In this document: one piece after another, positions 1-12,976 of the stretch
How positions within the stretch are numbered: the first letter of the stretch is position 1
Layout: the number at the start of each line of letters is the position of its first letter
Source of the DNA: Opitutales bacterium
GTDB taxonomy: Bacteria; Verrucomicrobiota; Verrucomicrobiia; Opitutales; PNEW01
Direction: 5' to 3'
Assembly: GCA_965219535.1 (NCBI GenBank)
Contig: CBDCNV010000002.1
Span: 1,740,001-1,772,000 of the forward strand
DNA length: 32,000 nt
The notes under the pieces: generated by a model
Database searches by the model: none
Told to the model about the DNA's origin: nothing
Seen by the model: only the letters and a program-made list of their open reading frames with translations
Translations under genes and position numbers: made by a program

Positions 1-1885
1 GCGCGAATCTCGCTGCGATCTACAATAATGTAGGGATGAGAGAAATAAGTATTCGCGAAGCTCATCGAGCGGTGCAGAATGATTATACTAATTACTCGGC
101 CCATCTTTTTCTTGCGAACAGTTACGATGCGCTGCGCGATCCTCGAAGATTTCAACTCCGGTTTGAAACACCGTGGGCTAATGAATTACTCTTAGCTAAT
201 CTCCTCTCCCCGGCCAGCGCGGGAACACTTTCTCAACATGTTTCTCAGCAGGAATACACCCCTCTTTTTGAGAGACAACGTTTAGGTTTAAACGCACAAA
301 GCACGTATCAAAGTCATGGAGAATTTCGCCAGCTCATTACTCAATACGGACTCTTTGGTGACACCAGTTATGCGGTAGATTTTGACTATCATACCTTTGA
401 CGGGTACCGCCTGAATAATGAATTCGATCGCATTGAAGTTTTTACACAGCTCAAGCATCAATTGACAGAGCAAGGGACAGTGTTTCTACAGTTGAAATTT
501 CAAGATTTTGATGGAGGCGATGTATCTCAGATTTGGGACAATTCTCAACTCCGACCGGATTTTCATTTCGAAGAAGAACAAATTCCGCTTGTCTTTGCGG
601 GTTATCACCACCGGTGGTCTCCGGGAATCGACACTTTATTTCTTTTTGGACGACTTACGGATGACTTAGTCAATCGAGATCTCCAAGTTCCACAACTCAT
701 TCTCAGCACTGATGAGGCAGGGGAGAGAGTTGTATTTCCATCAGCCGATATGGATTTTTTTATCGCAACGAATTGGAGATATACTCAGCAGAAATAACCC
801 AGATTTTCCAGCTCGACAAATGGACTTTTATAGGTGGACTGCGCTACCAGGATGGGGATTTTGAAGTCGAGAATCGGCTCACTGGGATTACTCTCATTCA
901 GGAACCCTTCTTTGACGATCCGCCAGCGAATTTAAAATTTAAGGAAGGTTTCAACCGAGTAAATTTATACTTATACTCACTCTGGGAGGTGTTATAAAAT
1001 TTAACAGTTACAGCCGGAGTCTCCTACGATAGTATAGATTATCCTTTAAATTTTTTAACTTCGCCTATTAGCAGTGGGCAATTGGAGGATGACCAGGTTT
1101 CACCCAAAGTCGGGATGAATTGGGACGTAAATGATCAAATAAGTATACGTGCAGCTTATAGCCAATCTCTCGGGGGATTTAGTTTTGATCAAAGTGTACG
1201 CCTCGAGCCCAGCCAGATATCTGGTTTCACCCAGGGATTTCGCTCCCTTATTTCAGAATCCGCAGTCGGTGCGGTCCCTGCGTCCGAATTTGAAGTCGCC
1301 GGTTTAGGGATCACGCTTAATATAGATGCGCAAACTTACCTCGATCTTCATGCCACGATTCGCGAAGCTGATGTTGTGCGTTTTGATGGTGTTTTCAATG
1401 ATACCGGCAGCACATTCTTCAGGCCGGGAGTAATCCGCGAGGTTCTCAATTACGAGGAGGATAATTTTACGGTTGCGTTAAACCATCTCCTCGGGGAAAT
1501 GTGGTCTCTGGGTGTGCGTTATGAATATACGCGATCTGATCTCGACCAGATTTTTGACACTATTCCCGACGCGAATTTTAATTTTCGCTCTACCTTACAT
1601 CAGCTAAATCTTTTCGCGATTATAAATCATCCCTCAGGCTGGCACGCAAAAGCAGAAGGTAGATGGGTGAATCAAGACAATCGGGGGTTTTTACCTGATT
1701 TTGGGGACGAGGACTTTTTCCAAATTGATGCTTTTTTGGGGTATCGAGCACCCGGCCAACAGTGGCAATTAACCGCGGGAGTCGTGAATTTAACGGATGA
1801 GAATTATCGACTCAATCCCCTAAATACATTTTTGGAATTTCCACGCGAAGTAGCTTTCTGGCTTAAGTTCGATTTGAATCTATAG
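1..1885 (+). pseudogene. TPR-containing outer-membrane beta-barrel-like protein, disrupted by a frameshift at the T7 tract 755-761 and an in-frame TAA at 995-997. The 5' end lies off-window.
   Basis: The frame of ORF 36..797 is open back to base 3 (..NLAAIYNNVGMREISIREAH.., TPR-like). The sense continues in the -1 frame (ORF 773..997; that frame is open from 716). After a single TAA at 995-997, the same frame stays open into ORF 1082..1885 (..LTVTAGVSYDSIDYPLNF..SPKVGMNWDV..IRAAYSQSLGG..). An alternating beta-strand pattern and the aromatic C-terminus AFWLKFDLNL suggest an OM barrel. Confidence 0.55.
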
Positions 1886-1902
1886 AGTGTTCATTTTAGG
1901 AG

Positions 1903-3888
1903 ATGAATATTTTCAAAAATCGGTGGGCTAAATATATCTGGGGTTCGGTTCTGGTTGTGGGCATTGGATTACTTTTTATCCTTCTACCTCTGGGAAATAA
2001 GTTAAGATATTTAAGCTATGATTTTTTATACCTCTTTCAAAACCAAGAACCACCCACTGATGTGGTTCTTGTTTATATGGATGAACAATCTCATCATGAA
2101 CTTGAACAGCCGTATGATAGAACATGGGACCGTCGCTTGCATGCGGAGTTACTTAATAAAATTACCGAGCAGGGAGCGCGTCTTGTCTTTTACGACATTA
2201 TTTTTGAAATGGTTAGTTCTAAACCTGAGAGCGACGCCGCACTCGCGGATGCTATTAAGAAAAATGGTTCGGTCGTTCTTGCAGGAAGTTTAACCCAGAG
2301 AAGGGAAACTCTATCCAGTCAGGAAATAATTATTCCGCCCGAAGCAAGTTTCCGACGGGCGACACGCGCCTGGGGTGTGCTGCAAATTCATGCGGTCAAC
2401 CCACGTCTGATTATAACCGGTACGCCCGACTTCGAATCAGCGACTTGGAAAGCAGCTGCAATTCTCGATCCCAGTATAAATGAACGCTTAGATAATCGAC
2501 TGAGCGAACGTTGGATAAATTATTTAGGTCCTCCCGATTCTTTTCCCTCAATCAGTTTTCATAAGGCTTACTTAGATGATCCTGAAAGTAGAGGTTTGTT
2601 TAAAGATAAAATTGTTTTTATCGGCTCAAGATATATTACGGGATTTACCGGTACCGCCAAAGACACGTTTTTCACCCCTTATTCTCTTTTGGGATTTCCC
2701 CCTGCTAATGGAATAGAGATTCATGCCAACAGCGTTATTAATCTATTAGAGGGTAATTGGTTGAACCGTCTAAACCGCGGGTCGGAATTGGCAATTGTCG
2801 CTGTCTACGGGATCTTAGTCAGTCTATTGTTAGTTTTACTCACTCCAAGAGTGGGGATCATAGTCACCCTTTTCTTAGGGTTTACGGTCGCGGTTTCATC
2901 TATTTTATTGAGTTGGCAAACCTTTACTTTTTACAGCTGGTTGGTTCCCGCTGGTGTACAGACAATGACTGCTTATGTCTGGGCCGTGGGGACAAAATAC
3001 TATCAGGAAACAAGAAGAAAGATGAGACTTAAAAAAGCGTTTTCCGCCTATCTCTCGCCGGTCATGGCTCAGCAGGTGGCGGAGAGTGATATTGATTTTG
3101 CGCCGGGTGGAGAACTTAAGGAAGTGACAATATTGTTTACCGATCTGGAAGGATTTACCACGCTTTCAGACAGTTCCAATCCCGGTGAGATATCAGAAAT
3201 ACTTAACACCTATTTTAGTCTGACTAGTAATCATGTATTACACGAAAACGGCACCATTCTTAAATATATCGGGGATGCAGTATTTGCGGTGTGGGGAGCA
3301 CCCCTTGAAGATCCGCAGCAGGCGAATAATGCGGTCAAAGCTGCGTTGGGTATGATAGAATCAACGCGGGATAAAAAAGTATACGGGCATCCCTTGCGAA
3401 CACGAATCGGTATAAGCAGTGGCAGCTGTCTGGCTGGAAACCTGGGCTCAGATTTACGATTTGATTATACGGTCATAGGCGATGAGGTCAACCTGGCCTC
3501 GCGACTGGAGGGACTGAATAAATATACGGGGACTGACATTGTGGTGTCTGAGACAACTGCGAGACAAATATCAGATTTATATAAAATGAGATTGATGGGG
3601 CGATTCCTTCTCGTGGGAAAAGAAAAGGCGGTTGAAGTTTATGAAATACTGGGAGAAAGCAATGGAAAGGAGCCAGAACAGGAGTGGCAGACAATTTATT
3701 CCGAAGGGCTTTCTCTTTTTTCCCAGAAAAAGTTTGATGAAGCGAAAAACTGTTTTCAAAAAACGATTGACATTCGACCGGAAGGAGATGGTCCCTCGGA
3801 ATTTATACTCAATCAGATTGATCAGTTATCTAATGGAAATGATTTGCCTAAAAATTGGAGTGGAGAAATTATTTTAACGGGTAAATAA
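1903..3888 (+). CDS. CHASE2 sensor domain-containing class III adenylate/guanylate cyclase with a TPR-like C-terminal tail
   Basis: It has an N-terminal TM helix (VLVVGIGLLFILLPL), a periplasmic-type region of about 270 aa, and a TM cluster (ELAIVAVYGILVSLLLVLL...). The cyclase core motifs are ILFTDLEGFTTLSD, YIGDAVFAVWGAP and DYTVIGDEVNLASRLE. AGGAG lies 5 nt upstream of the ATG. Confidence 0.9.
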   Translation: MNIFKNRWAKYIWGSVLVVGIGLLFILLPLGNKLRYLSYDFLYLFQNQEPPTDVVLVYMDEQSHHELEQPYDRTWDRRLHAELLNKITEQGARLVFYDIIFEMVSSKPESDAALADAIKKNGSVVLAGSLTQRRETLSSQEIIIPPEASFRRATRAWGVLQIHAVNPRLIITGTPDFESATWKAAAILDPSINERLDNRLSERWINYLGPPDSFPSISFHKAYLDDPESRGLFKDKIVFIGSRYITGFTGTAKDTFFTPYSLLGFPPANGIEIHANSVINLLEGNWLNRLNRGSELAIVAVYGILVSLLLVLLTPRVGIIVTLFLGFTVAVSSILLSWQTFTFYSWLVPAGVQTMTAYVWAVGTKYYQETRRKMRLKKAFSAYLSPVMAQQVAESDIDFAPGGELKEVTILFTDLEGFTTLSDSSNPGEISEILNTYFSLTSNHVLHENGTILKYIGDAVFAVWGAPLEDPQQANNAVKAALGMIESTRDKKVYGHPLRTRIGISSGSCLAGNLGSDLRFDYTVIGDEVNLASRLEGLNKYTGTDIVVSETTARQISDLYKMRLMGRFLLVGKEKAVEVYEILGESNGKEPEQEWQTIYSEGLSLFSQKKFDEAKNCFQKTIDIRPEGDGPSEFILNQIDQLSNGNDLPKNWSGEIILTGK

Positions 3889-3972
3889 TACTTAGTGTCA
3901 GCACACAAAAAACCGTCATGGGTCAGACGATGTTGAAAGTAGAATGAAATAACAGGATGAAAGGAACAGTAA

Positions 3973-4746
3973 TTGAGACGGAGTTTGATACTTGAAAAAT
4001 TAAGACGGGGCGAGTATGTGGTTATCAGCCAGTCTTGGATTATACCGCACTGGAAAATGGTAGATGTCATGGGAACGGTTGGGTTTGATGGCGTCTGGAT
4101 AGAGAATGAACACAGCGATTTTAATTATAGCGAAATTTCTCAGATGATACTGGCGGCCAGAGCGCATGATATGGATTCCATTGTACGTGTTGAACGGTGC
4201 GGCTACACGGGCATCATTAAACCTCTAGAAGCGGGGGCAACCGGATTAGTTGTGCCCCAAGTCGTGGATGGGGAGGATGCTAAATCCATTGTCCGCGATG
4301 CCAAGTACAGTCCGATGGGACTTCGAGGAGCCGGAGGAAGTACAGATTCGGTCTACGGTACCCAAGCGAGAGAAGAGTATATTGAGCAATCGATTCGCGA
4401 AACCTTTATTGCCGCACTGATCGAAAATAAAGAAGCGATCGAAGATATTGATGCGATTGCCGCGACTGAAGGTATCGATATGCTTTTATTGGGTCCAGGC
4501 GACCTATCACAAAGTTATGGAATATTCGGTCAATCTGATCATGAATTAATTATAAAAGCGACGAATGCAATGGCAGACGCCTGTGATAAACACGGTAAAT
4601 GGTGGGGCGCCCCGGTGTCGAATCGTGAACAGGCAGAAGCCATTCTCAAGCGTGGTGCGAGAATAATTCAAACAGTTAACGATCAGGAGATCATCGTCTC
4701 GGGATTCAGGAAGTTAAATGAGTCCTTTCAGGATATTAAGATTTAA
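3973..4746 (+). CDS. HpcH/HpaI-family class II (metal-dependent) 4-hydroxy-2-oxoacid/pyruvate aldolase
   Basis: Family motifs are GFDGVWIENEH, IVRVE, LEAGATGLVVPQV, KYSPMGLRG, LIENKEAIEDIDAI and LLLGPGDLS. A TTG start immediately follows an in-frame TAA, and AAGGAA lies 7 nt upstream. The start codon is the least certain part. Confidence 0.82.
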   Translation: MRRSLILEKLRRGEYVVISQSWIIPHWKMVDVMGTVGFDGVWIENEHSDFNYSEISQMILAARAHDMDSIVRVERCGYTGIIKPLEAGATGLVVPQVVDGEDAKSIVRDAKYSPMGLRGAGGSTDSVYGTQAREEYIEQSIRETFIAALIENKEAIEDIDAIAATEGIDMLLLGPGDLSQSYGIFGQSDHELIIKATNAMADACDKHGKWWGAPVSNREQAEAILKRGARIIQTVNDQEIIVSGFRKLNESFQDIKI

Positions 4747-4820
4747 GTTACACAGACAGCTGACCCATTTGGGTAGATCTGTTTTAGAATTTATTTCACC
4801 TGCGAAGCTCAGAAGTACTT

Positions 4821-6059
4821 ATGGCGAAAACCAAACTTACGGATCTGGCAGATTACGAGGCGTTTTGTGAATGGCGATTGAATGATCCTTACCCCTTGAT
4901 GCATCAACTGCGCGCCGAAGATCACGTTCATTGGAATGAGCGCATCGAAGGTTGGATGCTTACCCGTTATGATGACGTCGTAAATGGCTATCGCGACCCG
5001 CGACTAAAATCTGACCGGGCGTCGATTAATATGAAATCTCTGCCTGAACACCTGCAAAATAAATATCAAACCTTGGGGGAACATGTATCGAATTGGCTTG
5101 GCTTTACCGATGCACCTAAGCACACGCGGCTCCGCAATCTGGTGGGCAAGGCATTCACTCCCAGGGTTACTTTAAACCTGCAGCCACGTATTCAGGAAAT
5201 CACAAATAGCTTACTCGATAAGGCCGAGGAAAAAGGAAAACTGGATTTAATTGACGACTATGCTTTTCGATTACCGGCAACCGTGATTTGCGGGTTGTTG
5301 GGGATCCCCGCCGATTATCAGGATAAATTTCGTAAATATACCGAATATTTAGCCACTTTTGTCGGTAGCATGGGGCCTGAAATGATTAAAATAGCTGATC
5401 AAGCTAACGAAAGTTATAATCAACTCGCCAATTATTTCCGTGAGCTCGCGGCTGAACGACGGTGCGAGCCCAAGAATGACTTAATAAGTGTTCTGGCCAG
5501 GGTTGACGAAGACGGAGATGCGCTCGATGAAAGAGAGCTATTAGGGATGGCGGTCTTTCTCTTCGTAGCGGGACATGAGACAACAGTTTGTCTCCTCGCT
5601 AGCGGGTTTCTCCTGCTATTTCAGAATCCCAAGGAATTCGGAAAATTAAAACGTGACCCATCACTGATTGAAACTGCCGTGGAGGAGATTCTCAGGTATG
5701 AACCGCCGATATTGTTGAATACAAGATTAGCGTCGGAAGATATAAAACTCCGTGGCAAGCTCATTAAAAAAGGTCAAGCGGTGCTTCTGATGATGAGCGG
5801 CGCCAACCGGGACCCCGATCAATTTCCGGATCCGGATCGGTTCGACATATCAAGAGGGAATAATCAACACCTGGCCTTTGGATACGGACACCACGTCTGC
5901 ATCGGAGCACCCCTCGCGCGTCTAGAGGCAAAAATTGCGATCGGCTCCGCTATTAAGCGATTTCCCAACTTGCGTTTAGAGAATGAAAACTTTCAGAGTC
6001 AATGGCGCCGAAATTTGTCATTGCGCATGCTTTTAACATTGCCGGCGGTTTTAAATTAA
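4821..6059 (+). CDS. cytochrome P450 monooxygenase (bacterial soluble type)
   Basis: It carries the I-helix AGHETT, the ExxR motif EEILRYEPP, and the Cys-heme ligand loop FGYGHHVCIGAPLARLE. There is no signal peptide or TM segment. Confidence 0.93.
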   Translation: MAKTKLTDLADYEAFCEWRLNDPYPLMHQLRAEDHVHWNERIEGWMLTRYDDVVNGYRDPRLKSDRASINMKSLPEHLQNKYQTLGEHVSNWLGFTDAPKHTRLRNLVGKAFTPRVTLNLQPRIQEITNSLLDKAEEKGKLDLIDDYAFRLPATVICGLLGIPADYQDKFRKYTEYLATFVGSMGPEMIKIADQANESYNQLANYFRELAAERRCEPKNDLISVLARVDEDGDALDERELLGMAVFLFVAGHETTVCLLASGFLLLFQNPKEFGKLKRDPSLIETAVEEILRYEPPILLNTRLASEDIKLRGKLIKKGQAVLLMMSGANRDPDQFPDPDRFDISRGNNQHLAFGYGHHVCIGAPLARLEAKIAIGSAIKRFPNLRLENENFQSQWRRNLSLRMLLTLPAVLN

Positions 6060-6158
6060 ATTCCGGCTCTGATAATGTAATGTATTTACTTCACGAAGAG
6101 ATTTAAATAACCTTTGGATAGGGTGTATTAATAAAAGAGAAATCAGAGTTATCGGATA

Positions 6159-6965
6159 ATGGATACGGCAATACAATATGATATCGATCAGCATTTAGAG
6201 GAATGGAAAATAAATGGGTTTACTATTTTCGAAAACTTGATTCCTCTCGCTACGATCGACCGCATACGTAAGGCATGGATCCCGTACCGTGATGGGGAGA
6301 TCAGAAAACGAGACCCTGATCTAATAGAAAAACGCTACAATTTCAGTGTCCCCTTTAAAAAACCTTTCGTCGAACCAGAAATATTTGAGCACCCGGCAGT
6401 AGTACAATTCCTGGAAAAGGCGCTCGGACCGGATTACGTTTGGGACGAGTTTGATTCGAACACGCCTTTTCCCGGTGTCGATTACCAGGAATGGCACCGC
6501 GATACCCCCTTGCTGTTTTCTGATCTGATGACTCCCGCCTATAATATTGGTGTGAAATTTCCCCTTGTGGACACCTTTGAAGATAATGGCAGTTTTGAAG
6601 TTATCCCCTCGACACAATACTTAGCCGATTCAGCACTCTGTGAAAAAGAAATCAACGGTCGTAAGAATAAATGGTTCGACAATGTATTCGGTAGCGGTGC
6701 GGAACATACAGGTCGTTACTACCCGGTGCGTTTAAATTTAAAAAAAGGATCACTATGGATGCAAGACGGCCGTGCTTTTCATCGGGGAACACCGAACGTA
6801 TCGGATCACACACGCGATGAACTCTGTATGTCTTTCAATCGCCCCTGGTTTAATAGCCATTGGCAGCAAGAAGAAATGAAGACTGAATTTCCGCAGGATC
6901 TCTGGGACAGTCTATCTGATCATGCGCGTCATGTTTTACGTTGGCAATGGATTAAAGAAAATTAA
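6159..6965 (+). CDS. phytanoyl-CoA dioxygenase (PhyH)-family Fe(II)/2-oxoglutarate oxygenase, paralog 1
   Basis: The HxD motif is in EWHRDTP and the distal His is in AFHRGTPN. Length and layout are PhyH-like, and it is clearly paralogous to the next gene. Confidence 0.83.
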   Translation: MDTAIQYDIDQHLEEWKINGFTIFENLIPLATIDRIRKAWIPYRDGEIRKRDPDLIEKRYNFSVPFKKPFVEPEIFEHPAVVQFLEKALGPDYVWDEFDSNTPFPGVDYQEWHRDTPLLFSDLMTPAYNIGVKFPLVDTFEDNGSFEVIPSTQYLADSALCEKEINGRKNKWFDNVFGSGAEHTGRYYPVRLNLKKGSLWMQDGRAFHRGTPNVSDHTRDELCMSFNRPWFNSHWQQEEMKTEFPQDLWDSLSDHARHVLRWQWIKEN

Positions 6966-6999
6966 GTTAAATTAAGAATAAAAGCGGAAAAGAACAGCG

Positions 7000-7809
7000 A
7001 TGAGCGTAGCAACAGAGTATAATGTCGATCAGTTGGTCGAAGAATTTAAAATCAACGGTTTCGTTATCATTGAAGACCTTATTCCACAAGAAGTTCTCAA
7101 TCGGATATACGAGGCATGGATTCCGATTAGGGACCGGGAAATTGAAAGGCAGGGAGATAATCCCAACCGAGGGCCGAACCGCTATTGCATTAATATTCCA
7201 TTTGAGCATCCATTTCTGGATCCGGATATTTTCGACCATCCCTCGCTCGTAAAATTTTTTGAAAGTGTTCTTGGGACCGATTACGTTTGTGAACATTTTG
7301 ACTCGAATACACCTTTCCCCGGATCCGAATACCAAAAATGGCATCGCGATGTCGCAATGCTTTTTCCCGGATTGATGACACCGGCAATAAATGTCGCACT
7401 TAGAATTCCGCTCGTTGATGCCACTGAGGAAAATGGCAGTATAGAAGTGATTCCGTCCAGTCACTACATCGCTGATGAAGAGGTCTGTAATAAAGAAATC
7501 GAAGGGCGAAGAGGGAAGTGGTACGATAATATTTTTGGGGAGGGCCCAAATCGCAAGGGCAGTTACTACCCTGTTCGTCTCAATGTGAATCGCGGATCCA
7601 TTTGGATTTGTGATCCTCGCGTTTTTCACCGGGGAACACCAAACATTTCAGATCACTCACGTGATGAGCTCTCCATGGGATTCAGCCGCCCCTGGCTATT
7701 CAACCCCTGGCTGCACGAAAATACAGAAAAGTATTTTCCGCGCGATCTCTGGAATAGCCTCTCTGATCACGGTCGACAAGTGATGCGGTTGCAACGTGTG
7801 ATGGATTAA
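7000..7809 (+). CDS. phytanoyl-CoA dioxygenase (PhyH)-family Fe(II)/2-oxoglutarate oxygenase, paralog 2
   Basis: The HxD motif is in KWHRDVA and the distal His is in VFHRGTPN. It is colinear with 6159..6965 over its full length (FDSNTPFPG, LMTPA, PLVD, EVIPS, YYPVRLN, SDHxRDEL, LWxSLSDH shared). Confidence 0.83.
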   Translation: MSVATEYNVDQLVEEFKINGFVIIEDLIPQEVLNRIYEAWIPIRDREIERQGDNPNRGPNRYCINIPFEHPFLDPDIFDHPSLVKFFESVLGTDYVCEHFDSNTPFPGSEYQKWHRDVAMLFPGLMTPAINVALRIPLVDATEENGSIEVIPSSHYIADEEVCNKEIEGRRGKWYDNIFGEGPNRKGSYYPVRLNVNRGSIWICDPRVFHRGTPNISDHSRDELSMGFSRPWLFNPWLHENTEKYFPRDLWNSLSDHGRQVMRLQRVMD

Positions 7810-7870
7810 TTTTATATGATCAGAAATAGATCTACTATAAATTATAAATTAAACAAGGGGGGTTAAGCAT

Positions 7871-8737
7871 ATGGCATTTGGATCAGGAAAATATACCTAT
7901 GAAGTAGTAGAGGGGTGGGGACAATTACCCGATGGATGGACATGGGGTTGGATGCCCGCCGTGGCCTGTGATTCTCAGGACCGCGTGTTCGTTTATTCCC
8001 GGAGTGAACATCCCCTTGTCATATTTAACCGTGAAGGTGAATTCATCGACTCGTGGGGTGAGGATGTATTAATCGATGCGCATGGTATTTATATCGATGG
8101 CGAGGACAATGTCTACTGTATCGAGCGAGAAAATCATTGTGTTTTTAAGTTCAATAATAAAGGTGAGCTGAAAATGACAATCGGCACACCCGGTAAACCT
8201 GGGGAGAAAGATGAAGATCCCTTCAATTTACCAACTGACCTGGCTATAGCTTCTACGGGTGAAATATTTATTTCTGACGGGTACGGTAATCACCGCGTGC
8301 ATAAGTACACTGCTAATGGTGAACATTTACTTTCCTGGGGTGAGGAAGGAGATGGGCCCGGTCAATTTAATCTCTCACATAGTGTCCGTTTGGATAAAGA
8401 TGACCGCGTGTGGATCTGTGATCGTGAAAATAATCGTATCCAGATATTCGATACAGACGGTAACTTTTTGAGCGAGTGGACGGGACTTCTGCAACCGGAT
8501 ACGATTTATTTTGATCCCAATGAGGACATTCTTTATCTCGCTGAGTTGCAGCAACAGGTAAGTGTTTATACTTTAGATCGCCAACTCCTCTCCCAATGGG
8601 GTGGTGCAAAAAAAAGTGACAAGCCAGGTGAATTTAAAGCCTGTCCTCACGGTATTTGGACGGATTCACGCGGTGACTTATACGTCGGTCAGGTTCAAGT
8701 AGATGGTCAGTTACAAAAATTTGTACGGCAGGGATAG
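7871..8737 (+). CDS. NHL-repeat six-bladed beta-propeller, peptidyl-alpha-hydroxyglycine alpha-amidating lyase (PAL)-like
   Basis: Repeated NHL-type blades are present. The strings FNLPTDLAIASTGEIFISDGYGNHRVHKY and VWICDRENNRIQIFD closely resemble the PAL core as I recall it (..PTDVAV..FVSDGYCNSRI.., ..ADRENGRIQ.F). Candidate Zn histidines are in DAHGIYID, LSHSVRLD and CPHGIWTD. There is no signal peptide. Confidence 0.78.
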   Translation: MAFGSGKYTYEVVEGWGQLPDGWTWGWMPAVACDSQDRVFVYSRSEHPLVIFNREGEFIDSWGEDVLIDAHGIYIDGEDNVYCIERENHCVFKFNNKGELKMTIGTPGKPGEKDEDPFNLPTDLAIASTGEIFISDGYGNHRVHKYTANGEHLLSWGEEGDGPGQFNLSHSVRLDKDDRVWICDRENNRIQIFDTDGNFLSEWTGLLQPDTIYFDPNEDILYLAELQQQVSVYTLDRQLLSQWGGAKKSDKPGEFKACPHGIWTDSRGDLYVGQVQVDGQLQKFVRQG

Positions 8738-8752
8738 AGTGGTTAAGCGTAT

Positions 8753-8812
8753 ATGCGTAGATGCGAATATGCGTGAAAGCGATTACGCGGGAATGCGTAA
8801 AAGCAATTGCAG
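8753..8812. repeat. degenerate short tandem/direct repeats built on ATGCG(T/A)
   Basis: Three 8-nt units lie at 8753-8776 (atgcgtag/atgcgaat/atgcgtga). Two 20-nt copies lie at 8769-8788 and 8793-8812 (atgcgtGaaagcGattAcGC versus atgcgtAaaagcAattGcAG, 15/20 identical, period 24). The element sits in the convergent gap between the NHL and AKR genes. Confidence 0.45.
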
Positions 8813-8892
8813 ATTAATGATTGACGAGATTTGTCATTACGAATCTGCATCTGCCATTGAACCTTAAATACCTGACTCCTTATCCAATCCAT

Positions 8893-9819
8893 TTACCCCT
8901 GAGCTACCCATGAGCCATCGGAGTTGGCGACTTTAAAAGCGTCGCGAATTTTTGTTATGACTTCGTCAGGGAGAGGCCCCTTCTCGGCTACCGCGATGTT
9001 CGCACGCGTGTTATCGGGGTTAGTGGTTCCGATAATGGCTACATGAACACCCGGTTGGCTTATCGTAAAGCGAAGAGCAATTTCCGGCCACACTGTTTCC
9101 GGTGATCCGTCGAATCCGAGATCGGCTGGGTTGAGGTTCATTCTCTGCAAGCGCTCGGTGTAGGTTTTTGCGTAATCTTTATACATGCCCTGTTGGTCAC
9201 TCAATTTTTTCCAGGCTGCATTCGCAATGGGACGTTTTACCATCACCCCTATATTATTCTCTCTCGCTCCCGGTAAAAGACCATCAATATTGACCTGGTC
9301 GGTGATGTTGATGGACGTTTGAATGACTTTTACATCTTCAAGTGTCGCCGCATAGGCAACGGTTTCATTGTCCCCGGAATAACCGGGAAACCTGATTTTA
9401 CCCGCATCGCGAGCTTTGACCAGAGCGGCAAGGGCATCCTCTTTCTGTAAAGTCTCTAAATCACACGTGTGAAGGAGCATGACATCCAAGCGATCTGTTT
9501 TCAGGCGTTGCAAAGAGCGATCGATAGTTTTGGTGATCACGGCGGGCGACCACGCGGGATCATCAAATTCGTCAAACTCCCCCCCGCATTTACTGACGAG
9601 AATAAACTCATCACGACGATGACCTATGGTTTTACCAATCAATTCTTCAGATCCGTAATAGGAAGCAGCGGTGTCAATAAGGTTGACACCAGAATCGAGA
9701 AGAAGGTTAAGGATTTTGTCTGTTCTCGACTCTTCCGTCTCGAGCATGCCGATTGGCGCGCCCCCAAATCCCAAGGGTGTGACTTCTAAACCGGTGTTTC
9801 CAAATGCGCGTTTTTCCAT
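8893..9819 (-). CDS. aldo/keto reductase family oxidoreductase
   Basis: The N-terminus is FGNTGLEVTPLGFGGAPIG. AKR catalytic tetrad contexts are DTAASYYGSEELIG (D, Y), LVSKCG (K) and MLLHTCD (H). Confidence 0.9.
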   Translation of the reverse strand: MEKRAFGNTGLEVTPLGFGGAPIGMLETEESRTDKILNLLLDSGVNLIDTAASYYGSEELIGKTIGHRRDEFILVSKCGGEFDEFDDPAWSPAVITKTIDRSLQRLKTDRLDVMLLHTCDLETLQKEDALAALVKARDAGKIRFPGYSGDNETVAYAATLEDVKVIQTSINITDQVNIDGLLPGARENNIGVMVKRPIANAAWKKLSDQQGMYKDYAKTYTERLQRMNLNPADLGFDGSPETVWPEIALRFTISQPGVHVAIIGTTNPDNTRANIAVAEKGPLPDEVITKIRDAFKVANSDGSWVAQG

Positions 9820-10061
9820 AGCTTGTATTGATTAATACTTATGTGTTCGTTGTTGCTGACTGCTAAATCTGACAAGGTAAGTGTTCATCAACAATATTTT
9901 TATGTCAATACCTGCACCACACTTTCAATTGGTCATTGCTCAGGAGACATAACTTACGTCTTACATTTTACAGGTTATTGACCATCAGATAGACTTTCCC
10001 TGGAATGCCGTGGTTGACTTATTCAATTGACATAGCAGAACAATCCAATTGCAAACAAGCT

Positions 10062-11501
10062 ATGGCTAAAAAGCCGAATGTTCTCTTGATATGCACGGAT
10101 CACTGGAGTGGTCTCCTCACACCGCAAGCGGGGCATTCAGTGGTAATGGCGCCGACGATAGAACAACTTGGCCGCAACGGGGTGACCTTTACCAACGCCT
10201 ATTCAACATGTCCTTCCTGCATCCCGGCGCGACGCTCGCTAATGACGGGGATGACAGCTCGTTCACACGGCGACCGAATCTTTAATGAGGAACAACCGAT
10301 GCCCGATGCACCGACGATGGCGCAGTGTTTCAGGGATGGTGGATATCAGGCATATTGCGTGGGTAAATTACATGTGTATCCTCAGCGCAATCGGATCGGA
10401 TTTAATGAAGTGCTTTTGGAAGAACAGGGACGGCATCAGTTTGGAATTAAAGCAGATGATTATGAACGATTCCTTGCTCTTCAAGGATACGCCGGGATGG
10501 AATATGCCGGTGGAATGGCACATAATGATTGGCTGGCGCGCCCCTGGCATCTACCGGAATATTGTCATCCCATCAATTGGGCGGTGCGCGAGATGTCGCG
10601 CGTTATCTCTCGCCGTGATCCAGGTAAACCCGGGTTCTGGTATTTATCCTTTTCTGCACCGCATCCACCCCTTACTCCACTACAAGCTTATCTGGACCTT
10701 TATCGGGATATCGAAATGGATAAGCCGACATCGGGTAATTGGTCAATGGACGCTGAGAGTCTTCCCAATTCCCTGAGATCGCGAAATTTGGGCGCTCTCG
10801 TTAACGCGTCCTGGCAGGAGCAGTCCCTCGCAAGGCGTGCATTTTATGCGACCCTCACGCACATCGACCATCAAATCAGGTTGTTAGTCGGTATCTTGCG
10901 AGAAGAGGATATCCTGAATGATACGATAATAGTATTTACCAGTGATCATGGTCATATGGTAGGTGAGCATGGGCTTTGGGTGATGACACCCTTTTTAGAA
11001 ATGTCATCTAAAATACCGCTCATCGTTTTACCGACTGCAGGAGATAAGCGTTATCCCACCGATGCAATGGATGATAGAATTGCTGAGTTTGGTGATATCA
11101 TGCCAACCTTGCTCGCTATGTGTGGGTTACCTATTCCCGAAACAGTTGATAGTAATTCTCTCTGGAGTGATCAGCGCCGTGATTATCTTTACGGTGAACA
11201 TTTCGAAGGAGAATATGCCGCACGTATGATTCGAGCTGGACGATTCAAGCTTATATATTACGCAACGGGGAATATTGTGCAGCTTTTTGACATTGAAAAT
11301 GATCCCCGGGAAACGACAGATTTATCCAAAGATGAGCAGTATGCCAATGAGTTGGCGCGCCTTAAAGATTTATTAATTCAGAATTTATACAATGGTGACG
11401 AAGACTGGGTTCGCGACGGTGAACTTGTCGGCTTGCCGGATAGAGATTTCATTGCCCCTGATAATCGCGGGATGCTGGGTCAAAGAGGGCTGCGGTTTTG
11501 A
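10062..11501 (+). CDS. sulfatase (formylglycine-dependent arylsulfatase A family), no signal peptide
   Basis: The N-terminus is PNVLLICTDH. A formylglycine maturation motif is present in CIPARRSLMTG (CxPxRxxxxTG), and FTSDHGHMVGEHG matches the family. I prefer the ATG at 10062 (MAKKPNVLL..) over the track start at 10005, because the extra 19 aa have no signal-peptide character. Confidence 0.87.
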   Translation: MAKKPNVLLICTDHWSGLLTPQAGHSVVMAPTIEQLGRNGVTFTNAYSTCPSCIPARRSLMTGMTARSHGDRIFNEEQPMPDAPTMAQCFRDGGYQAYCVGKLHVYPQRNRIGFNEVLLEEQGRHQFGIKADDYERFLALQGYAGMEYAGGMAHNDWLARPWHLPEYCHPINWAVREMSRVISRRDPGKPGFWYLSFSAPHPPLTPLQAYLDLYRDIEMDKPTSGNWSMDAESLPNSLRSRNLGALVNASWQEQSLARRAFYATLTHIDHQIRLLVGILREEDILNDTIIVFTSDHGHMVGEHGLWVMTPFLEMSSKIPLIVLPTAGDKRYPTDAMDDRIAEFGDIMPTLLAMCGLPIPETVDSNSLWSDQRRDYLYGEHFEGEYAARMIRAGRFKLIYYATGNIVQLFDIENDPRETTDLSKDEQYANELARLKDLLIQNLYNGDEDWVRDGELVGLPDRDFIAPDNRGMLGQRGLRF

Positions 11502-11550
11502 GAGACGAGAATATGATTGTCCTTCTTCTTGGTTAAGCTAAAAGAACGAC

Positions 11551-12942
11551 ATGAGTGATAAGAATCCCTATCTAAATATCGACCGTCAAATGGTGGGTGA
11601 TATTTATACCTCAAATGAGGTGATGGATAATTTGACGGTGTTGTGTGATGATTTCGGTTCTCGTTTTCCTGGAACACCGGAAGAGCGAAAAGCAGCGGAA
11701 TTTATAGCAGAATCTTTTGACCGCTACGGTCTCAAAAATTCGCATTTAGAACCCTACCCCTACGCCGGATGGAGGCGAGGAGAAGCGACTTTGGGAATTT
11801 TGGAACCGATACAAAAAAAAATTCCCTGTATCTCATTGCCTTACTGTCCCGCTCAGGAAGTGCGAGGAGAGTTGATTTCAGTGGGTTGTGGGACACCTGC
11901 AGATTTTGAGCGGTTAGGTAATGAAATTGAAGGGCGAATTGTGCTCGCCAGCAGTGCTTCACCATCGAACCTGGGACGATGGGTGCACCGTCAGGAAAAA
12001 TATGAACGCACGGTAATTGGAAATGCTAAGGTTTTTATTTTTATCAGCGAACTCCCGGGGGTAGGGCCAGAAACAGGGAGTTTGCAGGATGATAGACCGG
12101 CACCGATACCAGGTATTTCCGTCTGCAAAGAAGATGGAGAGTTTCTCACCCGGTTAATTGAAAGAAAAGGTAAAGTAGAACTGTTGGTTCGTACCCTGGA
12201 CGTTAATGAACCGCTGACCTCGCAGAACGCGATAGCTGATCTACCCGGTAATGATAATTCAGAGGAAATGGTAGTAGTCGGATGCCACTTCGATGGCCAT
12301 GACATTTCCCAGGGCGCGCATGATCCCGCTTCAGGCATGGTCATGGTGATGGAAGCGGCACGCGCGTTATCCGCTTACACGGGGGATAAAATTAAGCGTA
12401 CGATCAGGTTTATTGGATTCAGCACGGAAGAAATTGGTCTTATCGGCTCCTACCGTTATGTGGAGTCCCATCGTGATGAGCTCGATAAGATTAGATTTTA
12501 TTTTAATCTCGATGCCGCTGGCGGACCCGGTCGCAAAGGAATTATTCTCCACAACTGGCATGATTTGGAGCCATTCTTTCGCCATGCGGGAGAAGAGATG
12601 GCTGTTGAATTACCAGTTGGACAACATGTAAATTCTTATTCAGATCACTTCCCGTTTTTTTTGGAGGGAGTTCCAACCGGAAATATGGGTGATCCGGAAA
12701 GAGGGCCGAGTGGCAGAGGATTTGGGCATACCCGCTACGATACCTTGGATAAAATTGAAACTGAAAATTTACGTGCGGGAAGCAGTGTAGCTGCACAGAT
12801 TGCATTGCGTGTTGCGAATACCGATAATTTCCCCGCATTGCGGCGGGACAAAAAAGCGGTTCAAGAGATCATAAATTCTGAACACAATTTAGAAGGCTAT
12901 AGAGTTAAATGTGAGTTGATGAAGAATAAGGTTGATTCGTAA
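11551..12942 (+). CDS. M28-family metallo-aminopeptidase with inserted PA (protease-associated) domain
   Basis: M28 zinc-ligand contexts are VVGCHFDGHD, HDPASGMVMVMEAARAL, FSTEEIGLIGS and FNLDAAG, plus a C-terminal YSDHFPF. There is no signal peptide. Confidence 0.84.
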   Translation: MSDKNPYLNIDRQMVGDIYTSNEVMDNLTVLCDDFGSRFPGTPEERKAAEFIAESFDRYGLKNSHLEPYPYAGWRRGEATLGILEPIQKKIPCISLPYCPAQEVRGELISVGCGTPADFERLGNEIEGRIVLASSASPSNLGRWVHRQEKYERTVIGNAKVFIFISELPGVGPETGSLQDDRPAPIPGISVCKEDGEFLTRLIERKGKVELLVRTLDVNEPLTSQNAIADLPGNDNSEEMVVVGCHFDGHDISQGAHDPASGMVMVMEAARALSAYTGDKIKRTIRFIGFSTEEIGLIGSYRYVESHRDELDKIRFYFNLDAAGGPGRKGIILHNWHDLEPFFRHAGEEMAVELPVGQHVNSYSDHFPFFLEGVPTGNMGDPERGPSGRGFGHTRYDTLDKIETENLRAGSSVAAQIALRVANTDNFPALRRDKKAVQEIINSEHNLEGYRVKCELMKNKVDS

Positions 12943-12944
12943 TA

Positions 12945-12976
12945 TTGGGGTGATTTGGTTGGCGATCATACCCCAA
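12945..12976 (+). terminator. possible hairpin just after the M28 peptidase stop
   Basis: ttggggtgat (12945-12954) pairs with atcataccccaa (12965-12976), giving a 7+3 bp stem with a 2-nt bulge. No clear U-tract follows, so this is weak. Confidence 0.25.

Follow-up and report, generated by a model that had tools for sequence, protein, structure and literature searches.

Positions 3973–8737 of the stretch analysed here, a window of 32,000 nucleotides (nt) taken from contig CBDCNV010000002.1 of a marine Opitutales genome, harbor a row of five plus-strand genes encoding, in this order, an HpcH-family aldolase (HpcH), a CYP107-like cytochrome P450 (hereafter P450), two PhyH-family dioxygenases (PhyH1 and PhyH2) and an NHL propeller (NHL protein) that resembles peptidyl-alpha-hydroxyglycine alpha-amidating lyase (PAL, EC 4.3.2.5). 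The reading that we favour, if hesitantly, is that two oxidative sub-modules are juxtaposed here, in this clade only, and that hydroxylation next to a heteroatom would give rise to a carbonyl compound that is subsequently reduced or enters an aldol reaction; the substrate as well as all of these steps are what we infer. The row appears to split into two parts, because a sister genome (L081) keeps the second part without the first, and because genes for a P450, an aldo-keto reductase (AKR) or short-chain dehydrogenase/reductase (SDR) and a PhyH protein recur together elsewhere. Part A would consist of HpcH, the CYP107-type P450 and PhyH1 and seems to be dispensable, as it is gone from the sister genome; in other phyla, the P450 of this part is found again together with a PhyH1-like partner and AKR or SDR genes. 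Part B, which would consist of PhyH2, the PAL-like, probably zinc-binding propeller and a convergently transcribed AKR, is kept throughout the clade. The genes of both parts are the following.

3973–4746, plus strand: HpcH/HpaI-family class II (metal-dependent) pyruvate aldolase, 257 amino acids (aa), TTG start (Pfam PF03328)
4821–6059, plus strand: soluble class I bacterial cytochrome P450, CYP107/PksS/BioI-like, 412 aa (Pfam p450)
6159–6965, plus strand: PhyH1, Fe(II)/2-oxoglutarate dioxygenase of the PhyH family, 268 aa (Pfam PhyH)
7000–7809, plus strand: PhyH2, KanJ-like Fe(II)/2-oxoglutarate dioxygenase, 269 aa (Pfam PhyH, KanJ match)
7871–8737, plus strand: PAL-like six-bladed NHL beta-propeller, 288 aa, probably a Zn(His)3 enzyme (Pfam NHL, PAL structure 3fvz)
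8893–9819, minus strand: AKR, convergent with the row, 308 aa (Pfam Aldo_ket_red)

An earlier reading of the window, made from the sequence only, had described five same-strand genes separated by 34–99 nt, and indeed we found the five open reading frames (ORFs) exactly at these positions, with intergenic gaps of 74, 99, 34 and 61 nt. Its five family assignments proved correct in profile searches, in which every Pfam match of the row and of the convergent AKR exceeded its curated cutoff, and the catalytic motifs of HpcH, P450, PhyH1 and PhyH2 are intact. As had been proposed, a Kyte-Doolittle scan with 19-residue windows reveals neither a hydrophobic N-terminus nor a segment of transmembrane grade in any of the five row products (maximal means of 0.69–1.71 per product, the value of 1.71 falling in the I-helix region of the P450), and the products are cytoplasmic. 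A simple scan detected no plus-strand terminator-like site between 3973 and 8737, and the five genes are probably co-transcribed. Same-strand runs of five genes are nothing unusual per se, and the 5' boundary of the row is arbitrary, since a same-strand gene for a CHASE2 cyclase is located only 84 nt upstream. The earlier statement that no regulator is present is for the same reason true of the gaps only. The earlier reading had also seen no gene for a transporter or for a nonribosomal peptide synthetase or polyketide synthase (NRPS/PKS) in the gaps and no gene for an enzyme resembling PHM, the copper monooxygenase that acts before PAL, and none of these was found among the annotated ORFs of the window, whose remaining genes are of the housekeeping type (UMP kinase, frr, proB, uvrD, nadA, priA, fur).

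The complete row was detected only in close relatives, i.e. in the loci L001 and L094 (93–99% aa identity) and L089 (81–91% aa identity). The nearest genome is the Opitutales metagenome-assembled genome (MAG) OY829953.1, in which all genes are 96–99% identical at the aa level and the order is unchanged, and L094, a marine metagenome contig of the Joint Genome Institute (JGI), is as close. Two partial contigs (L095, L096) comprise the HpcH-P450 pair only. The sister genome L081 (80–88% aa identity) encodes the cyclase, a PhyH2-like protein, PhyH2, the NHL protein and the convergent AKR and is devoid of HpcH, P450 and PhyH1, with a duplicate of PhyH2 occupying the PhyH1 slot. The PhyH2-NHL pair together with the convergent AKR is kept in all five of the clade loci. 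Beyond the close relatives, co-localisation of the five genes as a conserved operon was not observed; the orthologs are scattered, which is largely the outcome that the sequence-only reading had itself named as speaking against its view of the five genes as one functional module, and this view is not supported by the comparison. A sponge-symbiont origin of the window was also considered and could not be established, the nearest genome being the Opitutales MAG and relatives being found in marine metagenome contigs as well.

Orthologs of the P450 (51–57% identity) adjoin genes for carbonyl reductases and PhyH proteins in three of the four genomes inspected (L090, L091, L093). The order is SDR-P450-SDR-PhyH in L090, where the PhyH protein is 43% identical to PhyH1; an opposite-strand PhyH gene is followed by the P450 gene and, after a 10-nt gap, an AKR gene in L091; and the P450 and AKR genes of L093, a locus with six PhyH genes in 17 kb, are separated by 2 nt. 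The AKRs downstream of the P450 orthologs in L091 and L093 exhibit 32–33% identity. At the family level, the combination of P450, AKR or SDR and PhyH thus recurs across phyla. PhyH2 orthologs at 65–74% identity (L082–L087) have no NHL, P450 or HpcH gene nearby and are located next to other PhyH genes and AKR, ThuA, GFO_IDH_MocA or methyltransferase genes. We considered a PhyH pair with an AKR as a conserved orthologous core and rejected it: the second PhyH protein and the AKR of L082–L085 are not detectably orthologous to the window genes, and the recurrence of this set is therefore one of families only.

PhyH1 and PhyH2 share 54% identity and match the Pfam PhyH model with 53 and 74 bits, respectively (cutoff 22). 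Both carry an iron triad (H113-x-D115...H208 in PhyH1, H115/D117/H210 in PhyH2), with R-G, which includes the 2-oxoglutarate-binding Arg, following the distal His in either case. The closest solved relative of PhyH2 is the kanamycin B dioxygenase KanJ (E 3e-20, the next match reaching E 2e-5), with which its HxD and HRG motifs align; judging by this E-value, KanJ appears to be a relative of PhyH2 rather than its ortholog. PhyH2 attained no NCBIfam equivalog, and the window contains no aminoglycoside biosynthesis genes, whereas KanJ, paired with KanK, performs the 2'-deamination of an aminoglycoside within a cluster of such genes. KanJ hydroxylates an amine-bearing carbon to yield a ketone, which the NADPH-dependent reductase KanK then reduces (PMC5533434), and PHYHD1, another member of the PhyH family, catalyzes the oxidative demethylation of 2'-O-methyl nucleosides, i.e. 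the removal of the ribose O-methyl group (PMC12709175). Both reactions are heteroatom-adjacent hydroxylations on a sugar ring.

The PhyH2 subfamily is rare, with 114 relatives at E<=1e-10 among 5.8 billion proteins. In large MAGs, those of the Poribacteria type among them, relatives of PhyH1 and PhyH2 are arrayed in tandem, and 17 kb can contain as many as six PhyH genes. PhyH is the most abundant Pfam family in Poribacteria, accounting for about 2% of all genes, mostly of unknown function (Kamke et al., PMC3909097). On a Poribacteria contig (L088, 69–6163), a PhyH1-like pair (64% identity) adjoins genes for a gamma-glutamyltranspeptidase, a PF03417 (AAT) acyltransferase/hydrolase and a DAO-type FAD oxidase, which is an amide or amino-acid context, in contrast to the sugar-type contexts at the other loci. 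We also noticed tandem genes for proteins of 533 aa in which a PhyH domain is joined to HEAT repeats (L082, L084, L085, positions ~600–5500), an architecture that we did not recognise; additional PhyH genes, a gene of the FMO type and insertion sequence (IS) elements are found close by.

The NHL protein matches the Pfam NHL model with 75 bits (cutoff 20) and PAL (3fvz) with E 2.7e-25 in phmmer. PAL itself is a propeller with zinc, calcium and an active-site Arg, and the exchange Arg703Gln abolishes the activity of the human enzyme (PMC10303134). In an AF2 model (predicted local distance difference test, pLDDT, 93.7; predicted template modelling score, pTM, 0.91), the NHL protein folds into 24–25 strands arranged in six blades, and a Foldseek comparison with 3fvz (E 7e-19, TMq 0.83, 25% identity) gave the top TM score and identity among the matches listed, non-enzymatic TRIM-type NHL domains matching the model with similar E-values. 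In PDB searches with the family profile, with N- and C-terminal fragments and with a C-terminal profile, PAL was outranked by repeat-rich TRIM and Pizza propellers among the alignments listed.

The residues H71, H170, H260, Y138, R185 and R189 are invariant across 19 NHL orthologs from several phyla. The three His occupy position 2 of the innermost strands of blades 2, 4 and 6, respectively (strands 70–75, 169–174 and 258–264), the equivalent position in blades 1, 3 and 5 being occupied by A30, T122 and D210, and the "PHG" His position aligns to a His of the designed Zn-binding propeller Pizza6-SH. We matched these residues to PAL by arithmetic on HMMER alignment coordinates rather than by a printed alignment or a superposition: residues 48–197 of the query correspond to 71–227 of the 3fvz chain, so that the offset rises from 23 to 30. 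For rat PAL, we take the zinc ligands to be His585, His690 and His786, with Tyr654 as the catalytic Tyr, Arg706 as the Arg that binds the substrate carboxylate and the 329-residue 3fvz chain spanning 492–820. On this assumed numbering, the growth of the offset by 7 is the one expected if H71, Y138, H170 and R185 correspond to His585, Tyr654, His690 and Arg706, and the spacings H71-Y138, Y138-H170 and H170-R185 amount to 67, 32 and 15 residues versus 69, 36 and 16 presumed for PAL. The earlier description as PAL-like was borne out by the phmmer match, the TM score of 0.83 and the invariant His on blades 2, 4 and 6; we conclude from the model that the NHL protein is PAL-like in its predicted fold and, from the residue pattern, that it is probably so in its putative active site.

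The NHL family is very large, with 4562 relatives at E<=1e-20 and 60–80% identity across Caldilineaceae, Poribacteria, Latescibacterota and others. Its annotation varies: NCBI calls some relatives [quoted passage not shown] and JGI calls orthologs "sugar lactone lactonase YvrE". The Pfam SGL match of the NHL protein covers only 31 residues. When 185,579 species genomes were scanned with a pattern, at least 597 loci with a gene for an NHL relative were obtained, of which we examined the best 80. Without L001, the remaining 79 loci (1287 ORFs) contain neither a P450 nor an HpcH gene according to hidden Markov model (HMM) and phmmer searches, two weak 28% tblastn matches to HpcH aside, and ten PhyH-family ORFs, mostly in Poribacteria and at about the background for these PhyH-rich genomes. 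The adjacency of a PhyH and an NHL gene in the Poribacteria locus L021 was considered as independent support for a coupling and rejected, as it is close to chance expectation because about 2% of Poribacteria genes encode PhyH proteins (PMC3909097).

The genes that do accompany the NHL orthologs across phyla encode zinc-dependent alcohol dehydrogenases, glucose-1-dehydrogenase-type SDRs (231.9 bits, cutoff 215), AKRs, proteins similar to molybdenum aldehyde/xanthine oxidoreductases, glycerate 2-kinases, MR/MLE dehydratases (314 bits to the L-talarate/galactarate dehydratase model), UxuA dehydratases and thiamine diphosphate (ThDP) enzymes. Such a carbonyl-theme gene is found within four genes of the NHL gene in 28 of 63 loci and as its immediate neighbour in 18 of them. 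In L099/L100 (9001–13408), an 80%-identical ortholog overlaps by 4 nt with a split ThDP enzyme (TPP_enzyme_N and TPP_enzyme_C genes), which is followed by a molybdopterin oxidoreductase; the ThDP enzymes near NHL genes show partial similarity to glyoxylate carboligase. This context would fit a release or consumption of aldehydes or 2-oxo acids, e.g. of glyoxylate as in the PAL-type reaction, as well as a lactonase in sugar oxidation, between which it does not distinguish. The neighbourhood varies over the 63 loci, and no single partner occurs in even a quarter of them.

Within this variety, some lineages show arrangements of their own. In the Dehalococcoidia loci L055, L064 and L072, a ThDP enzyme gene (NCBIfam PRK06154) adjoins the NHL gene. 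In the Poribacteria loci L024–L034 and L040, the NHL gene is fixed between GlnE (by eye similar to glutamine synthetase adenylyltransferase) and glutamate dehydrogenase with PdxJ, a setting of nitrogen metabolism that may be meaningful or fortuitous. In Caldilineaceae, the NHL and glycerate kinase genes are adjacent in L004, L005 and L009 and are separated in their sisters L003, L006 and L007 (~10980–12950) by an inserted gene pair (~441–457 aa and ~213 aa), which, judged by sequence and without a family-library scan, looks like an AAA-ATPase/RloB-type pair.

HpcH matches PF03328 (HpcH_HpaI), a TIM-barrel domain, with 88.7 bits (cutoff 25) and reaches none of the characterised equivalogs (HpaI, GarL, RhmA), with 119.6 versus 368.8, 110.6 versus 393, 105.1 versus 406.8 and 72.2 versus 441 bits. 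Its best PDB matches are 3qz6, with an alignment over 227 residues, and 2-dehydro-3-deoxyglucarate/galactarate aldolases (E 1e-30 to 1e-25). R72, E151 and D177 are located in the conserved motifs vRv, iE and GPxDLs, and by analogy to HpaI we take them to be the catalytic Arg and the Glu and Asp metal ligands. An HpcH-based scan of JGI metagenome contigs returned five loci, all of them close relatives or uninformative. The P450 (Pfam p450, 127 bits, cutoff 22.8) has PksS, CYP267B1 and BioI as its best PDB matches (E ~1e-80); its Cys ligand is located in the loop FGYGHHVC360IG (consensus FxxGxxxCxG), and the acid-alcohol pair of the I-helix in AGHETT. The AKR (Aldo_ket_red, 128 bits, cutoff 24) is syntenic in L001, L094, L081 and L089, the last of which encodes two copies.

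Taken together, the favoured scheme of two juxtaposed sub-modules could proceed as follows. The KanJ-like Fe(II)/2-oxoglutarate dioxygenases and the P450 would hydroxylate a C-H bond beside an N or O atom of a scavenged small molecule. The hemiaminal or hemiacetal formed in this way might collapse to the carbonyl spontaneously or, in the case of a stable carbinolamide or alpha-hydroxy acid derivative, with the help of the PAL-like lyase. The carbonyl would then be reduced by the AKR, following the logic of KanJ and KanK, or the class II aldolase would join it to, or split it from, pyruvate.

Several observations weigh against this scheme. The spacers of 34–99 nt are not those of tightly coupled genes. 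The cyclase, AKR, sulfatase and M28 flanks are as syntenic in L001, L094 and L089 as the row itself, and the conservation in L089 (FecR, TonB-like protein, CHASE2 cyclase, row, AKR, second AKR, sulfatase, M28 peptidase) is therefore one of the whole region; since the five-gene order is kept only where the flanks are equally kept, the synteny carries little functional weight. The PhyH genes that accompany the P450 gene in L091 and L093 are members of other PhyH subfamilies, and the AKRs are only 27–33% identical from lineage to lineage. A PhyH gene is lacking as immediate operonic neighbour in 62 of 63 other NHL loci, the exception being L021 with a 31-nt gap, and the P450 has no adjacent redox partner, with no gene for a ferredoxin or ferredoxin reductase among the annotated ORFs of the window. 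It is unlikely, in our view, that the genes have no functional link at all, i.e. that five independent accessory enzymes with substrates of their own are chance neighbours in one Opitutales lineage, the NHL protein being a stand-alone, widely conserved enzyme. Such an absence of a link would agree with flanks as syntenic as the row, with spacers that could house separate promoters, with the shifts in gene content between close relatives and with the variable NHL neighbourhood, including the Poribacteria copy between GlnE and glutamate dehydrogenase/PdxJ. It is at odds with the occurrence of the P450 together with AKR or SDR and PhyH in three other genomes, twice at gaps of 2–10 nt, with the retention of PhyH2, NHL and AKR in all five clade loci, and with a row free of internal terminator-like sites.

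A possible, if doubtful, alternative is an oxidative catabolism of sugars or sugar acids, in which the NHL protein would act as a lactonase or hydrolase, HpcH as a 2-keto-3-deoxy-sugar-acid aldolase and the AKR as a sugar dehydrogenase or aldehyde reductase, while the PhyH enzymes and the P450 would strip an amine or a methyl ether. The nearest structures of HpcH include the 2-keto-3-deoxy sugar aldolase YfaU besides the sugar-acid aldolases named above, substituents of sugars are the targets of both KanJ and PHYHD1, and marine P450s that demethylate carbohydrates with partner dehydrogenases are known (PMC6292453, PMC10033563). The neighbours of NHL genes in four phyla include glucose-1-dehydrogenase-type SDRs, MR/MLE, UxuA, glycerate 2-kinase and a molybdenum enzyme similar to glyceraldehyde dehydrogenase; the PhyH2 and P450 orthologs are found among ThuA, GFO_IDH_MocA, 3-keto-disaccharide hydrolase, GH32, BNR, sulfatase and MR/MLE genes; and the window itself has a sulfatase gene at 10005–11501. 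The JGI name of the orthologs would point in the same direction, whereas the 31-residue extent of the SGL match does not. Propeller lactonases of the SMP30/PON type have a carboxylate/Asn metal site, in contrast to the His triad of the NHL protein. Moreover, the window is devoid of genes for a sugar-acid dehydratase, a sugar transporter or a kinase, no carbohydrate demethylase is among the best 60 PDB matches of the P450, and the ThDP enzyme translationally coupled to the NHL gene in L099 is ill-suited to a lactonase. The sequence-only reading had instead proposed a dedicated five-gene operon for copper-independent amidation or N-dealkylation, in which a PhyH enzyme or the P450 hydroxylates the C-alpha of an N-acylglycine or peptide and PAL-like cleavage releases an amide and glyoxylate, the latter being passed on to HpcH and the AKR. 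Its families and the PAL-likeness stood, including the His/Tyr/Arg signature and an offset growth from 23 to 30 that fits the presumed PAL residues, and the PhyH-PhyH-NHL order kept in L081, the glyoxylate-type sinks beside NHL genes elsewhere (ThDP enzymes, glycerate 2-kinase) and the gamma-glutamyltranspeptidase, PF03417 acyltransferase and DAO genes next to the PhyH1-like pair of L088 would suit it. The five genes as a unit are not supported: they are not co-localised outside a narrow clade, L081 dispenses with HpcH, P450 and PhyH1, and next to the NHL genes of 79 other genomes, oxygenase genes do not exceed their background frequency. The window also contains no gene for a precursor peptide, an amidase or an N-acylglycine-related function, and we know of no PhyH-family enzyme that makes peptidyl-alpha-hydroxyglycine, so that we regard such an operon as very improbable. 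A narrower form, in which PhyH2 and the PAL-like zinc propeller alone would be a copper-independent, cytoplasmic bacterial counterpart of PHM and PAL that hydroxylates the alpha-carbon of an N-substituted glycine or amide and releases glyoxylate to the aldolase or a reductase, seems improbable as well. In its broader version, the prokaryotic PAL-like family, with thousands of members that are 60–80% identical across phyla, would consist of C-N lyases releasing glyoxylate or aldehydes.

If the row were a true pathway of this kind, it would represent a bacterial amidation-type oxidative C-N cleavage that requires no copper; the comparative evidence gives no support to such a conserved unit. More interesting than the row itself are two of its families. 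One is the widespread and unusually conserved prokaryotic family of PAL-like propellers, an orphan with regard to function that is consistently found beside enzymes of aldehydes and 2-oxo acids. The other is the rare KanJ-like PhyH subfamily, whose genes are arrayed in tandem in bacteria from the sea and from sponges; the expansion of PhyH in these bacteria has lacked an explanation since 2014. The combination of P450, AKR or SDR and PhyH, repeated across phyla, is worth knowing in its own right.

Around the row, we identified the following further elements.

1903–3888, plus strand: membrane-bound fusion of a CHASE2 sensor, an adenylate/guanylate cyclase and TPR repeats (Pfam CHASE2, Guanylate_cyc, TPR)
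8745–8797, no strand: degenerate 8/16-nt tandem repeat in the convergent NHL/AKR spacer (Tandem Repeats Finder, TRF)
10005–11501: sulfatase (family scan of the window)

The CHASE2 cyclase has a hydrophobic N-terminus and is syntenic in L001, L081, L089, L094 and L095; possibly, it serves the enzymes encoded downstream as a signalling unit. The 84-nt spacer between its gene and the row contains a hairpin at 3912–3931, detected on the minus strand (3931–3912). In relatives, genes for FecR and a TonB-like protein precede the cyclase gene. In the window, a gene for an outer-membrane protein similar to TonB-dependent receptors (3–1882) is split over two frames (3–761 and 755–1882); the gene is unbroken in L001 (1777–3996), and L089 has a 750-aa version. 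The split reflects a pseudogene with a frameshift or else an indel introduced by the assembly. On the other side of the row, the spacer between the NHL and AKR genes (8738–8892) harbors the tandem repeat with a TRF period of 16, 3.3 copies and the consensus AAGCGAATATGCGTGA. The core of the repeat is conserved in L001, L094, L089 and L081, and the spacers of L001, L094 and L081 exceed that of the window by about 72 nt. The repeat could be a regulatory or a terminator element.

The five proteins of the row all belong to known enzyme families, and none of them is characterised. The arrangement of their genes is specific to the lineage and matches none of the pathways that we compared, i.e. KanJ/KanK, PHM/PAL, the P450 systems for the demethylation of carbohydrates and the sugar-acid route of the LRA type. 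Like the PAL domain of animal PAM (PHM and PAL, PDB 3fvz/3fw0), the NHL protein has a six-bladed NHL propeller as its predicted fold; its invariant His on alternate blades and its invariant Tyr and Arg probably fall where PAL has its zinc ligands, base and carboxylate-binding Arg. Unlike animal PAM, which works in the secretory pathway, it is cytoplasmic, prokaryotic and stand-alone, without a signal peptide and without a PHM-like copper enzyme fused to it or encoded next to it, and the neighbours of its orthologs encode dehydrogenases, ThDP enzymes and glycerate kinase. The non-phosphorylative L-rhamnose route LRA1-4 employs an SDR dehydrogenase, a lactonase, an MR/MLE dehydratase and an HpcH-family aldolase. 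The row shares with it an aldolase of the HpcH family, and NHL orthologs are located near glucose-1-dehydrogenase- or Lra1-like SDRs, MR/MLE and UxuA dehydratases and glycerate 2-kinase; in contrast, the window has no dehydratase, its propeller is of the NHL/PAL type and not of the SMP30 or amidohydrolase type, and the route offers no place for three oxygenases. The marine P450 system that demethylates 6-O-methyl-D-galactose, with redox partners and alcohol dehydrogenases, resembles the window in having a soluble bacterial P450 near a dehydrogenase or reductase in the context of marine polysaccharide degraders; in the window, a sulfatase gene is close by. The P450 of the window, however, groups with PksS, CYP267, BioI and CYP107 and has no ferredoxin or reductase next to it. 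The PhyH expansion of Poribacteria comprises tandem relatives of PhyH1 and PhyH2, whereas the window, which is from an Opitutales genome, has two copies only. Finally, the KanJ/KanK system differs from the row in that here no aminoglycoside cluster is present, two paralogous PhyH copies exist and the reductase is an AKR encoded on the opposite strand. It shares with the row the best solved relative of PhyH2, a reductase gene that is always near in the clade, and the succession of an oxygenase and a carbonyl reductase.

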